Shown: in pieces, positions 51,001-57,000 of the stretch
How positions within the stretch are numbered: the stretch's first letter is position 1
Layout of the letters: each line of letters opens with the position of its first letter
DNA from: a plasmid
Reading direction: 5' to 3' (one strand)
Length of the DNA stretch: 64,000 nt
Assembly (NCBI RefSeq): GCF_988243305.1
Contig: NZ_OZ547137.1
Position numbers: made by a program

Positions 51001-54000
51001 GGATGATAGGCGGTACTATTCCGCTGATGATTTATTACGGCCTTAATCTGATAAATCCTTCCATGATCTATGTGACGGCCCTGCTCGTTACTGCCATCGT
51101 TTCTGTATGCACAGGGACATCCTGGGGATCCGCAGGCACCGTCGGTGTTGCGTTTATGGGTGTGGCTATCGGAATGGAGGCTAATCTGGCAGCAACTGCA
51201 GGCGCTATTGTGGCAGGGGCTTACTTTGGGGACAAACTGTCTCCCCTTTCTGGTGATACTAACTTAGCCGCAATGGCAGCCCAGATAGATCTCTATGAAC
51301 ACATCGCTCATTTACTTTATACAACCCTTCCTTCATTGATACTGTCAGCCTTTGTTATGACGCTCTATGGGATGAATGGCGAGCTCGGCGGCTCAAACAT
51401 TCCCGAAAAAATTCAGCTAATCACTGAAGGATTAAAAGGAATTTATCATTTTAATTTATTGTTATTGCTACCCATTGCCATTGTCCTGTACGGTTCGATT
51501 ACCAAGAAACCAACCATTCCAATTATGCTTGTTTCGGCACTGGTAGCCATGATCAACGCCAGCGTTATTCAGGGGTTCGCACTACACGACATTGTTAAAA
51601 GTGCAGTAGACGGATTTAACGTTTCAATGCTTACCGATAAAGATGTTAATCCGCTATTAGGTAATTTGTTAAACCGCGGTGGCATGAACTCGATGATGAG
51701 TACGTTGCTTATTTGTTTCTGCGCCCTTTCATTTGCGGGAACATTAGCCTTGAGCGGCGCTTTAGAAGTCATCGTCCATAATCTGCTCAAATTAGTTCAT
51801 TCCACAGGAACCATGATTCTTGCGACTATTGCCTGTGGTTTAACAATGATTAGCGTGACCTGTAATGGTCAGATATCAATCCTGATTCCGATTGAAATGC
51901 TACGAAGTGCTTATATTGAGCGCGGCCTACATCCAAAAAATCTGGCAAGGACTGTAGAAGACTCTGCCACCATATTTGAACCAATTCTGCCCTGGACTGC
52001 CGCGGGTGCCTACATGGCAGGTATACTTGGCGTTGCTACATTAAGCTATCTTCCGTGGGCTATTCTCTGCTGGAGTGGCATTTTCTTTGCGACGCTGTGG
52101 GGGTTCACAGGCTTTGGTATCGCTCGATTGTCCAAAGAAAAGCAGCAACAGCTCATGATGGAAACCATAAATGAAAGCAAATAGAATCGGCCTGATTAAT
52201 ATATTTGATAGTAATTAACCACGTCTACACGCCGCCCCCGATTGCGGCGTGATGTCTGTTACTCTCGCTTCAGCCGTTTGGAATTGCACAGCCACAGGGT
52301 GCTCACCAGTAGCAGGAACGCCGCAGTACATCCATAGACGCTTTATGATCGACGATGATTAATCACACAACCGTGGTGATCCCGATATAGATGTCACGAA
52401 CAGTGCAAAAGTGGCTCTTCCACAACTTGGGTGGAGATTTTCATGCCAGTGGACTCATTACCCTCTGCCTGAGTAGTTCAAATCCTGCTCGACCATACAT
52501 CTGGCGTTTCAGCATCTTCAGGCGATTTACATGACCTTCGACAACACCATTACTCCAGCGACTACTGATTGCCTCACATATAGCTGCAGCATCAGCTTCC
52601 ATCCCCGCCGCCACGCGCCGAAATTCTGCTGAACCGCTTTCGTGGACTCGAGTGAACCAACTGCTTAGCTGTGATTTATTTTGGGTTTTCAGAATACGGT
52701 AGAACTCGAGTGCCAGTTGCTGCGCTATTTTCAGCTCTGAACCGCCCCGGGTTTCCTGGAGAGTGTTTTATCTGTGAACTCAGGCTGCCAGATCATCGTT
52801 TCCGATGGAAGCATAATAAGCTTTTTCTGCTTCTGCCGGAGGAGTATGGCCCAGCCTTTCCAGCAATCGTCGATTGTTATACCAGTCCACCCACGTGAGT
52901 GTGGCCAGTTCCACTTCTGCACGGTTTTTCCAGCTCTTACGGTGTATTACCTCCGCTTTGTAAAGACCATTGATGCTCTCCGCCATCGCGTTGTCATACG
53001 AGTCGCCTGTACTTCCTGTTGATGCCAGTAATCCGGCTTCCTTAAGCCGCTGTGTGTAGGCCAGCGATACATACTGAGAACCTTTATCACTGTGATGGAC
53101 CGTGCCGGACGGTCGACGGGCCCATAACGCCTGCTCCAGTGCATCCAGCACGAATGTCGTTTCCATGGACGATGAGACCCGCCACCCCACGATGTATCCG
53201 GCAAACACATCAATGATGAACGCCACATAGACGAAGCCCCGCCATGTGCTGAGTAGAGTAAGAGGCAGGGCGTAGTCGGACTATTTCCCTGCCTCTCCTC
53301 CCCGAACCGGACGTGCACCTTTCAGCGCATCCGGCTCTCCATTTAAATGCTGGCGAACGCCATTGCCACTTCTGTAAAGCGCGATGTATACGTGTTTCTG
53401 GTCTCCGTCCTCAGATAGGGATTACCTTCGGGTAGCCGCCAGCGGAACAGCTTCTTGCCTTGCCCCACCAACCGGTACAGTATTTCGCCGCTGAGCTTGC
53501 CGTGATTGGTTTTACCAAATAAAACCCACGTTTTGCTCTGACCCGGTTTCGGTGATTTACACCACCACCTCATCAGGGAAGCGATACCTGTACGGTATTT
53601 GCGGGCCAGCCAGTGAGCCAGCTTCCAGAACACGACACGGTCGATATAACTGAAGACTTTGGCCTTAAAATCAACGAACTGATAGAACATGGCCCAGCCT
53701 TTCAGTTTTCGGTTGAGTTGTTCAGCCATATCGACTTTGCTTTCACTGTAGTTGCCTGATAACAGTGCTGTCAGCGATGCGGCGAAGTTTCTGGCTTTCT
53801 CCTGCGGGATCGTTGAGACCACTCGCATCTCGCCATAACGACTGCGTTTGCGAATGATCCTGTGCCCCAGAAAGATAAAGCCGTCATTAACATGGGTGAT
53901 TTTAGTCTTATCCATGTTCAGCCTGAGTTTCAGACTGCCTTCGAGCACACCCCGACACTCCTCCCTGATGGCTTCCGCCTGTGCTTTGGTGCCTTTGACG

Positions 54001-57000
54001 ATGAGGACAAAATCATCGGCATAGCGGCAGTACGCCACCGCGGGTTTCCACTGCCAGTTTTCTCTGACCGCCGTACTTCGGCCCCGTTGGATACTGTTAT
54101 TCCAGTACCACCGATCTTTTCTGGCTTTCCCGCTCAGGTAGCGCTCATGCAGGTATTGATCGAACTCATTCAGCATGATGTTCGATAATAGCGGCGATAT
54201 AACACCGCCCTGTGGCACACCTTCACTGGCCGCCCGAAAGAGACCGACATCGATATGTCCCGCCTTGATGGTTTTCCACAGCAGAGTCATGAAACGTGCG
54301 TCACTGATCCTGCGGCGTACAGCCTTCATCAGCAGTCGATGATGTACGGTGTCGAAGTAACTGGACAGGTCGCCTTCAATCACCCAGCGTCCCCGGGTTT
54401 CACCACAGTCTGTGAGCTGTAATTTCACCGTGCGGATAGCGTGGTGGACACTGCGCTCAGGCCGGAAGCCATATGAGAGCGTATGAAAATCACTCTCCCA
54501 TATCGGCTCCATCGCCATCAGCATGGCCCGCTGAACAATACGATCCCGCAACGCGGGGATACCCAGTGGTCGCAGTTTGCCGTTGCTTTTAGGGATGTAA
54601 ACCCGTCTGGCGGGCAAGGGCTGGTAGTGGCCTGAGAGTAATTCATCCCTGAGGATTTGCAGCTCAACAGCTAGTCTGGCCTGTAGCATTGTTTTGTTCA
54701 CGCCATCAACGCCGGGGGTATGGGCCCCCTTTGATGAAAGCGTGATCTGCGCCGCTTCAGCCAGCCATTCTGGTTGTGTTATCAGACGCAGCAGCCGTTG
54801 AATCCGTAGGGACGGATCGGTGACTGCCCATGTGGCAAGCTTGCGTTGCATTTCGCTGATTATCAAAGGTCTTCACCTCGTTAGGTCAGTTAATTCACGT
54901 CGCAAACACATTCAAACTGCTTCCCTTCGCCATGTAATGGGCTTTCCCCATCGCGGACTACTACGGAAGCTCCGCCAGCCAGCGCGTCATCGGAGCCATG
55001 CCCCCTTAACATCCGTCGCTGACCTTCCCCGGTTTACCTGCCTGGACTCAGGCATACTGAGGAGGCTGCCCGTCGCACTCTTTATCCTTGCTTGCCGCAA
55101 GTTGGCAGAAGTCAGCAACGCAAGCGTGATAGACGCTGCTGCCCCGGTGTTTCGCATACATGTCAAAACACCTTCGACCGGCAGTGCTTACGTATCACTG
55201 CCAGTTCCTCCTGCACGGCCTGTCAGATCACGTAGGCCGTGGTGACGTTTTCAACCCACAGAGGCGGATTAACGGGTTCATGTTCTTCAGCCTTTCAGTA
55301 CTTAACCTTGAGGATCATCTCGGCTTAGTGATCTCGCCTCAATCCCCGTTGTCAGCGGGTTACATCACCCTGCGGGCATGCCGCAGGTCACTGCCGCTCA
55401 GGTTCTCCACCGTCACACCCGGTGGGATTGTTGGGTTTCTCATCGTGAGTTACCGGTTCAATATTCCAGACAGACTCGCGGTTCATTTAAGCATCCATGC
55501 CCGCCCTGAACTCCGGGCACACCGTAAGTAAAATCAGCCACCCACAGCTGGTCAGGTCGTTCTGCCACGAACTGACGGTTTACGCGGTCGCCTGCGGCAA
55601 CGGCTTTCCGGCTGATGGTCGTACGGACCTTTTTACCCCGGAGAACACCGGCAAGTCCCATAACCGCCATGAGACGTGCCACAGTGCATCTGGCCACTCT
55701 GATACCTTCCCGTAACAACTGACGCCAGACTTTACGCACACCGTATACCTTGTGATTTTCATCGTATACGCGCTGTATCTCTTTCTTCAGCCAGTCATCG
55801 CGCTGCGCACGGGCACTGCGTTTATCCGGATGATGTCGCTGTTGCTGACAGTGGTAATACGTTGACGGGGCAATATGCAGTTCGCTGCATAGCGGTCCGA
55901 CCCCGTACTGCTCACGCAGCTTATCCAGCAGTGGCATCATTTTTTCCAGAGGCGGTCGAACTCCGCCTTCGCAAAATAAGCGGAAGCCTGGCGAAGGATA
56001 TCGTTACTGCGGCGCAGTTCACGATTTTCACGTTCCAGCTCTTTCAGACGCTGACGTTCAGCGGTGGTGAGCCCTCCATCACCGCCCCCGGTATCCCGCT
56101 CATGCTGGCGAACCCAGACACGCAGAGTCTCCGGCGTACAGCCAATCTTTGGAGCAATGGAACAAATTGTCGCCCATTGTGAGTCATATTCGCTCTGACT
56201 TTCCAGAACCATACGGACTGCCCGTTGACGGACTTCGGGGGAAAAACGAGTATTTTTAGTCATCCTGTTTACCTCTTTCTCAGGAAGTTTAGTCTCCAGG
56301 ATTCCCGGGGCGGTTCACTCAGGTTCTTTTTCACACATCAGACTAATAAATCGGGAAGCATAATTTTCTTCATCCCTGGTTATTCTCCAGGGCATCAACC
56401 AGCGGCTTACCCGGGACACTGAAGGAAGTCTGACGGCAGTAGTAACCGGTGGGTTCCAGCCTTTACGCCATTTGGCAACCGCATCCCTGACGATGGTTTC
56501 ACTGCCTGTAAATCCCCGGGCCACCATTTCCCGCCATATCCGGCTGGCGTTATAATTACCACTTTCTCGTTGCTCTTTTAACCACTCCCTCCATGGGTCC
56601 AGAAGCCCTCGCTTTGGAGGTCGGGTTGACATTTCAGGGAATGTTCCTGAACGCACCCAGCGACTGACTGTCACACGCGACAGGCCTGTAATACGGGATA
56701 TTTCCCTGAAACTACATCCCTTGTTATGCAGGGCCATAACCTCTGTCCAACGCTGATGCCGTTTTTTGCGGGTTTGTTGTTTTAGGCGTTCCGGACGACG
56801 GAGCGATGCTGCAGGCACAGATGGTTCTGGATCAGGTGATTTCTTTGGTGACAACTCACTGGCAACAAGACGTATCAGAGGTATATGTCTGTACATCATT
56901 CGTTCAGGCGCATCGCCAATATTTTTTAGCAGATGCCATCGATCGGCCACCTGTCTGGCCTGAGGTGCACCTTCACGTGCTGCTGTCGCATAGACTCCAC

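Follow-up and report, generated by a model that had tools for sequence, protein, structure and literature searches.

A copy of the group II intron E.c.I4 at its published homing site in an IS629/IS1203-type element of a plasmid

Introduction

Within a stretch of 64,000 nucleotides of plasmid DNA (contig NZ_OZ547137.1 of assembly GCF_988243305.1; hereafter the window), the orfB transposase gene of one IS629-like element is split in two by an inserted sequence. We asked what this insert is, whether its ends can be placed to the base, and whether the insertion sequence (IS) that carries it could still give rise to a transposase. A first-pass annotation of the window had called the insert a group II intron lying in sense orientation inside orfB and had placed its ends at 53253 and 55522.

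Judged by its sequence, the insert is a copy of the already known intron E.c.I4 at its published homing site, and the feature is in this respect ordinary. E.c.I4 (also named S.f.I1), from E. coli and Shigella, is a bacterial group II intron of class A, a class with intron proteins that lack an endonuclease domain (PMC3552965). Its target sites are specific positions within IS629, IS911, ISEc16 and ISEc31, and its homing into IS629 has been published (PMC3522654); the intron is also listed in PMC2198948. No data on splicing or mobility of E.c.I4 were found in our literature search.

Results

When position 55523 is joined to 53252, the resulting junction aligns without a gap with both of the other IS629 copies in the window. 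These two copies, at 39058-40370 on the plus strand (copy 1) and from 49142 down to ~48230 on the minus strand (copy 2), are without an intron. On the plus strand the interrupted element reads ...gctga (53248-53252) / gtagagtaag...gggcacac (53253-55522) / cgtaagt (from 55523), and on the sense (minus) strand ...TTACTTACG / GUGUGCCCGGAG...CUCUUACUCUAC / UCAGCACAUGG. The boundary is fixed and cannot slide, because the last base of the 5' exon is G and the last base of the intron is C, while the first base of the intron is G and that of the 3' exon is T. Excision of the intron in silico, after which the exon junction reads ...TTACTTACG followed directly by TCAGCACATGG, leaves a 1310-bp IS629/IS1203-type element with zero host bases gained or lost and no target duplication at the intron ends. 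This rebuilt element is matched in one piece, at 100% identity over 1310 nt, by uninterrupted IS copies from other E. coli genomes. Both the placement of the ends to the base and the sense orientation within orfB, as given in the first-pass annotation, are thus borne out. The coordinates of all features are shown in Table 1.

Table 1. Features of the intron, its host element and the unoccupied homing sites (window coordinates)
Feature	Position	Strand	Details
Group II intron E.c.I4 (bacterial class A)	53253..55522	-	2270 nt, 5' GUGUG to 3' ...CUAC
Reverse transcriptase/maturase	53343..54851	-	502 aa from ATG; 507 aa from upstream TTG at 54866
EBS1 hairpin loop	55187..55195	-	AUACGUAAG; intron 328-336
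Domain V catalytic hairpin	53304..53337	-	GAGCCGGAUGCGCUGAAAGGUGCACGUCCGGUUC; from Rfam RF00029 alignment
Domain VI	53253..53303	-	bulged branch-point A at 53259, 7 nt from 3' splice site
Whole IS629/IS1203-type IS3-family element	52738..56317	-	3580 bp with intron, 1310 bp without
5' exon side of IS	55523..56317	-	left inverted repeat, orfA, frameshift region, orfB start
orfA	55937..56263	-	108 aa
ALIL pseudoknot (IS3-family programmed -1 frameshift stimulator), orfA/orfB overlap	55866..55982	-	RF01497, 120.2 bits
3' exon side of IS	52738..53252	-	orfB from base 2 of Val codon to stop, right inverted repeat
Empty homing site, IS629 copy 1	39840..39864	+	junction 39852/39853; matches occupied site from -34 to +12
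Empty homing site, IS629 copy 2	48336..48360	-	junction 48348/48347; matches occupied site from -34 to +12

The insert has the consensus ends of group II introns (GUGYG / AY), and its domains V and VI are matched by Rfam RF00029 with 64.9 bits (gathering score 40; E 1.7e-10), the match stopping exactly at 53253. The domain V hairpin carries the AGC triad, a 2-nt bulge and a GNRA-type loop, and the branch-point A at -7 is unpaired in both the Rfam alignment and the minimum-free-energy fold. The EBS1 loop is also unpaired in the minimum-free-energy fold. Its CGUAAG (intron 331-336, window 55192-55187) pairs at six of six positions with CUUACG, the final bases of the 5' exon, and the A directly 5' of this motif could pair with U, the first base of the 3' exon. 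Candidates for EBS2/IBS2 pairing are weak: UUAAUCCGCC at intron 251-260 and GAAAAC at 271-276 both fail to lie clearly in a loop, and their partner bases are not conserved in the targets of other IS hosts.

The intron-encoded protein holds RVT_1 (E 2.2e-34) and GIIM (E 1.3e-10) domains by Pfam, scores 340.8 bits with TIGR04416 (cut-off 300) and contains YADD. An endonuclease (D/En, HNH) domain was not found in the 502-507 aa protein, which consists of RVT_1 and GIIM only. Together with the RF00029 match, these domain matches, which are far stronger than chance would give, confirm that the insert was correctly called a group II intron. Inactivation of the maturase ORF, raised by the first-pass annotation as a possible argument against splicing, was looked for; the ORF is intact, with 501 of 502 residues identical to the E24377A ltrA product WP_001189123.1.

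The host element has the marks of the IS3 family: a length of ~1.3 kb, intact inverted repeats (TGAACCGCCCCGG...), a target duplication of 3 bp (plus-strand CTC at 52735-52737 and again at 56318-56320), a -1 frameshift signal and an rve domain. It is an IS1203/O157-type isoform, only ~93-95% identical to window copies 1 and 2, and it sits near the 3' end of the transposase gene of ISEc38 (ISL3), a name taken from the RefSeq annotation of related plasmids. The 5' exon holds orfB codons 1-139 plus one nucleotide and ends ...W-V-A-D-F-T-Y + G, placing the intron after base 1 of the codon that follows this motif, which surrounds the first catalytic Asp of the DDE triad. Once the intron is removed in silico, the reading frames of orfA (108 aa) and orfB (296 aa) are both open; the spliced orfB scores 314.6 bits with NF033516, and its rve domain (E 7.3e-26), which spans the junction, is restored. 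Since both frames are open once spliced and the intron lies in sense orientation, splicing could restore the transposase of this IS copy. The first-pass suggestion that the copy may still make transposase thus fits the sequence, in which the ribozyme core and the intron-encoded protein are also intact. Copy 1 does bear the frameshift ascribed to it in the first-pass annotation, an extra A at 39879 that leads to a premature orfB stop. The homing sites of copies 1 and 2 lie within 16 kb of the same window, and as both remain empty despite being identical to the occupied site over the matched interval, either retrohoming is inefficient or the intron arrived recently.

Compared with a published E.c.I4 copy (E24377A, NC_009801 4848623-4850893; coordinates from Table S3 of PMC3522654), the intron shows 99.4% nucleotide identity at the same length (2270/2271 nt). 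The type of homing site is also shared: one defined position within IS3-like transposase genes, that of IS629 among them. We see no substantive difference from the published intron; the present copy lies in an IS1203/O157-type isoform that is itself nested in ISEc38.

At least 80% of the intron was found in 1873 of 5426 complete E. coli genomes. The search of other genomes for an intron at the same IS629 position, which the first-pass annotation had proposed, was positive in 1433 of the 5426, all with an identical IS629-type 5' junction. Among plasmids, 1519 records, spread over several enterobacterial genera, carry the intron; 2720 records contain a copy with at least 99% identity, and copies with 100% identity occur in many unrelated genomes. 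In E. coli the insertion occurs at one and the same codon and phase in six different IS3 hosts. For the source replicon as such, the nearest matches are E. coli plasmids of ~140-165 kb, at 98.8-99.3% identity and with a different local arrangement.

In many Gammaproteobacteria, relatives of the intron occupy this same codon position, directly after D-x-T-Y around the first catalytic Asp. About 30 loci in Marinobacter, Vibrio, Photobacterium, Pseudomonas, Pectobacterium, Yersinia and elsewhere have a 5' exon that closes with ...D-x-(T/S)-Y + 1 nt, and in-silico splicing of five full-length relatives restores an in-frame OrfB. The junctions of three relatives fall in IS6-family transposase genes; these cases are defined by their 5' junctions, as L042 is a 5' intron fragment of ~580 nt without domain V, and L046 and L048 end at contig ends. 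Changes in EBS1 among the relatives compensate for changes in the target, with EBS1-IBS1 covariation of 4.64 of 6 pairs vs 4.24 +/- 0.12 when shuffled (14 of 20000 shuffles reached the observed value).

Discussion

Taken together, the data make it very probable that a full-length, apparently functional E.c.I4 retrohomed into the cognate orfB site of an IS629/IS1203-type element. By analogy with established group II introns, the intron would be transcribed within the IS transcript, and its encoded protein would aid lariat splicing, by which the orfB exons would be religated and the OrfAB transposase could still be produced. The lariat-protein particle would in turn reverse-splice into DNA bearing the same IS3 motif. 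As the intron-encoded protein has no endonuclease domain, the primer for cDNA synthesis would come from nascent DNA at a replication fork.

Such priming probably also serves the retrohoming of RmInt1 of Sinorhizobium meliloti, a class D intron with ISRm2011-2 as its host IS and with experimentally characterised splicing and mobility. RmInt1 likewise is without an endonuclease domain and has its homing site, in sense orientation, in an insertion-sequence transposase gene; it differs from E.c.I4 in intron class and host IS. Ll.LtrB of Lactococcus lactis, a class ML/IIA intron, resides in a relaxase gene. It resembles E.c.I4 in being a mobile group II intron placed in sense in a mobile-element gene, and in maturase-assisted splicing followed by EBS-IBS-directed reverse splicing, steps that would be expected of E.c.I4. 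The two differ in host gene (relaxase vs transposase) and in that the Ll.LtrB protein, LtrA, has a DNA endonuclease domain, whereas the E.c.I4 protein does not.

Several other accounts of the locus were weighed. That the locus is an artefact of assembly, or that two partial IS629 copies came together by chance with an unrelated reverse transcriptase gene, has a vanishingly small probability, given that nothing was found in favour of it, that the same junction recurs in the 1433 complete genomes and that the Rfam domain V/VI match ends precisely at the junction; the exact collinearity of the IS halves, with no base lost or gained, rules out such an origin as well as a sliding boundary. A different account bears on history only. 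It is quite conceivable that an IS629::E.c.I4 composite of 3.58 kb, already invaded by the intron, transposed whole into ISEc38 with a transposase either translated from spliced mRNA or provided in trans. The intact inverted repeats and the clean CTC/CTC duplication inside ISEc38 are consistent with this course of events, as are the identity of the spliced IS to active-looking copies elsewhere and the presence in the window of two uninvaded IS629 copies of a different isoform. However, the junction of the IS with ISEc38, with or without the intron, had no contiguous match in the 5426 complete E. coli genomes.

The intron may instead be structurally intact but functionally silent, with little or no splicing in vivo; the IS copy would then be an effective pseudogene and the intron a dead-end insertion. 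This would fit the two uninvaded sites in the window and the unsaturated E.c.I4 homing sites present in most genomes (PMC3522654). It would also agree with the annotation, in which PGAP tags the flanking IS3 halves as 'frameshifted; incomplete' and RefSeq treats split IS3 genes as pseudogenes, and with a report of reduced host-gene expression caused by a group II intron (PMC6003770). We nevertheless consider silence unlikely. The intron-encoded protein, domain V, the branch A of domain VI and EBS1 are all intact, the many identical and near-identical copies in unrelated genomes fit recent activity of the family, and very recent independent proliferations of E.c.I4 have been inferred (PMC3522654). 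Retrohoming of an apparently functional E.c.I4 is thus the reading we prefer.

For the window itself the significance is small: a widespread, catalogued intron is met once again at a published site. Annotation pipelines call both IS halves frameshifted pseudogenes and leave the intron unmarked. Copies of this kind are therefore miscounted in E. coli and Shigella, both when insertion sequences are tallied and when pseudogenes are, and some of them may still be active, provided that the intron splices.

In a 2013 survey, class A comprised no more than three members, all nearly identical (PMC3552965). We suggest tentatively that the entire E.c.I4-like clade may have specialised as parasites of DDE transposase genes: EBS1 (N-G-U-A-N-G plus the adjacent A) would read nucleotides that are fixed by the T/S-Y-(hydrophobic) residues after the first catalytic Asp, which would let the clade colonise divergent IS3 elements across the Gammaproteobacteria and even IS6-family elements (D-E-T-Y). 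If this proposal is true, one selfish element would follow a stretch of another that is under functional constraint, namely the codons after the first catalytic Asp in IS3 and occasionally IS6 transposase genes.

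Intron Boundaries and Identity

The first-pass annotation had placed the ends of a group II intron within an IS629 orfB to the base. On the plus strand, gctga (53248-53252) is followed by gtagagtaagagg...ccgggcacac (53253-55522) and cgtaagt (from 55523), and the minus-strand junctions read ...GAUUUUACUUACG / GUGUGCCCGGAG ... CUCUUACUCUAC / UCAGCACAUGG, in agreement with the junctions first proposed on both strands. The host element was spliced in silico (55523-56335 joined to 52717-53252, reverse complement) and aligned to the window's other two IS629 elements, copies 1 and 2, with no gap across the joined junction. 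Because bases differ on either side of each junction, the boundary cannot slide. The spliced element is 1310 bp long. Other E. coli genomes contain uninterrupted copies of the IS that it matched in a single piece (1310/1310 nt, 100%), and 53253-55522 is therefore exact. The proposed sense orientation within orfB also held on the spliced host.

The intron is 99.4% identical to the E.c.I4-2b copy at NC_009801 4848623-4850893 (Table S3, Leclercq and Cordaux 2012, PMC3522654), whose ltrA product matches the window protein at 501 of 502 residues. E.c.I4 and S.f.I1 are class A introns, the proteins of which lack an endonuclease domain (PMC3552965). An earlier listing (PMC2198948) already had IS629 as the host of an E. 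coli intron and an IS629-like ORF as the host of one from Shigella flexneri. Given this match and these entries, the feature was already known: it is an ordinary, previously catalogued element, E.c.I4 in IS629.

Ribozyme, Intron-Encoded Protein, and Host Element

Features of the intron and surrounding mobile elements in the window
Feature	Coordinates	Strand	Details
Host IS including intron	52738-56317	minus	terminal inverted repeats intact
Group II intron domain V/VI model	53253-53339	minus	Rfam 64.9 bits, gathering score 40
Intron-encoded protein ORF	53343-54851	minus	502 aa from ATG
IS629 copy 1	39058-40370	plus	additional A at 39879
ISEc38 (ISL3-family) transposase gene	52400-52737 and 56318-57643	minus	
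Rfam isrC sRNA match	48039-48161	minus	142.5 bits

The last base of the domain V/VI match coincides with the 3' splice site proposed for the intron. Domain V reads GAGCCGGAUGCGCUGAAAGGUGCACGUCCGGUUC, and domain VI carries an A at window position 53259, 7 nt from the 3' end, that the Rfam alignment leaves unpaired, as does the minimum-free-energy fold. The intron-encoded protein contains only RVT_1 and group II maturase domains, includes YADD, and passes NCBIfam TIGR04416 (340.8 bits, cut-off 300). Its start is ambiguous, as translation from a TTG that precedes the annotated ATG by five codons (54852-54866, minus), and that itself follows a GAGG at ~7-8 nt, would give 507 aa rather than 502. 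Intron positions 321-343 form a hairpin with the loop AUACGUAAG, which holds EBS1, CGUAAG (331-336), a perfect complement of CUUACG, the final six bases of the 5' exon. The A immediately 5' of CGUAAG could pair with U, the first base of the 3' exon. No intron segment could be assigned as EBS2.

The host IS is flanked by a 3-bp target duplication (CTC at 52735-52737 and 56318-56320) and contains an ALIL frameshift pseudoknot. The call of an IS629 host stood, though in detail the isoform differs: the intron lies in the form named IS1203 by RefSeq in O157:H7. The 5' 150 nt of the invaded element are 100% identical to those elements, and the invaded element is only ~93-95% identical to copies 1 and 2. 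Copy 2 ends after ~910 nt, cut by another IS3-type element; the truncating sequence (~47810-48230, minus) looks like the beginning of a further IS3-family element, with left end and orfA, and encloses the isrC match.

The host IS was inserted near the 3' end of the ISEc38 transposase gene, giving three nested mobile elements, and the ISL3 reading frame appears by hand translation to continue past the insertion. The exact IS-in-ISEc38 junction had no match among 5426 complete E. coli genomes, and ISEc38 is uninterrupted in a related plasmid. A second ISEc38 copy begins at the window edge (1-300 versus 56360-56659, a 300-nt direct repeat at 100% identity).

Splicing and Transposase Production

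Both reading frames are open after in silico splicing (orfA 108 aa, orfB 296 aa). Spliced OrfB scores 314.6 bits against NF033516; the junction, at residue 139/140, falls inside its rve domain (residues 127-223). In copy 1, the additional A truncates orfB, bearing out the frameshift described earlier. Splicing could thus let the invaded copy make transposase while copy 1 could not, a reading consistent with every sequence feature. The main rival explanation holds that this intron is inactive in vivo, leaving the IS in effect dead; we consider it improbable.

Established group II intron biology suggests that the intron would be transcribed as part of the IS transcript and its RNA bound by the intron-encoded protein, with lariat splicing at the branch A religating orfB. 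The ribonucleoprotein would then reverse-splice into DNA with a top strand complementary to EBS1 and, at +1, to the adjacent A. As no endonuclease domain is present in the protein, nascent strands at replication forks would probably prime cDNA synthesis.

Homing Site and Distribution

Of 5426 complete E. coli genomes, 1873 contain at least 80% of the intron, and copies at ≥99% identity occur in 2720 records. A 300-nt query for the IS629-type 5' junction (150 nt exon, 150 nt intron; coverage ≥80%) was covered in 1433 genomes; insertion of this intron at that IS629 site, a recurrence that the first-pass annotation had suggested looking for, is therefore very common. Plasmid records with the intron number 1519 and come from Escherichia, Klebsiella, Salmonella, Enterobacter, Citrobacter, Shigella, and Yersinia. 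Where the match is limited to the intron half plus 13-30 exon bases, the host is a different IS3 element (an IS911-like fragment in K-12, ISEc52, ISEc31, and others). In each of the six host types compared, insertion lies within the codon following W-x-x-D-(F/V/I)-T-Y, directly after its first base. EBS1 is constant among these E. coli copies across hosts, pairing 6/6 with the IS629/IS1203 site only and 4-5/6 with the other host sites, a pattern that fits IS629 as the majority host.

The empty homing sites in copies 1 and 2 (39852/39853, plus; 48348/48347, minus) are identical to the occupied site from -34 to +12 relative to the junction and lie 5-16 kb from the intact intron. That nearby identical sites are empty indicates either inefficient retrohoming or a recent arrival of the intron, which agrees with the report that E.c.I4 sites are not saturated (PMC3522654).

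Relatives Across Gammaproteobacteria

One genome per species was scanned with the first 20 nt of the intron, which recovered 44 loci spread over many Gammaproteobacteria. Identity to the window intron is 68-98%, and the hosts include Marinobacter, Vibrio, Photobacterium, Pseudomonas, Pectobacterium, Yersinia pestis, Serratia, and Rahnella. A 2013 survey listed only three class A members, all near-identical. In almost all 44 loci the 5' exon ends in ...D-x-(T/S)-Y plus 1 nt, the same codon and phase of an IS3-family OrfB as in the window (55523-55545). Five full-length relatives have domain V/VI, and splicing these in silico gave an in-frame IS3 OrfB with T as the first 3'-exon base in all. Three 5' junctions instead follow D-E-T-Y of IS6-family transposases (NF033587, E 1e-27 to 6e-30): L042, from Pseudomaricurvus alkylphenolicus, is an intron fragment of ~580 nt without domain V, and at L046 and L048, from Photobacterium frigidiphilum, intron sequence runs to the contig ends.

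EBS1 covaries with its target, with a mean of 4.64/6 pairs over 25 distinct combinations versus 4.24 ± 0.12 for shuffled partners; 14 of 20000 shuffles reached the observed pairing. Compensatory pairs include UGUAGC with GCUAUA, where Thr ACN becomes Ser AGC, and GGUAGG with CCUACC at an IS6 site. We read these patterns as suggesting that the clade recognises bases fixed by the T/S-Y-hydrophobic motif. The G opposite -2 would tolerate either Tyr codon by forming a G-C or G-U pair, and the A beside EBS1 would match the T that occupies the middle base of the hydrophobic codon.

In the RefSeq annotation of E24377A and pB20123_1, PGAP reports intron-split IS3 genes as "frameshifted; incomplete" pseudogene fragments and marks ltrA only, with no intron feature. 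Intron-split IS elements are therefore scored as dead in a systematic way. While the E.c.I4 copy in the window is itself ordinary, the clade-wide target rule offers a modest lead.
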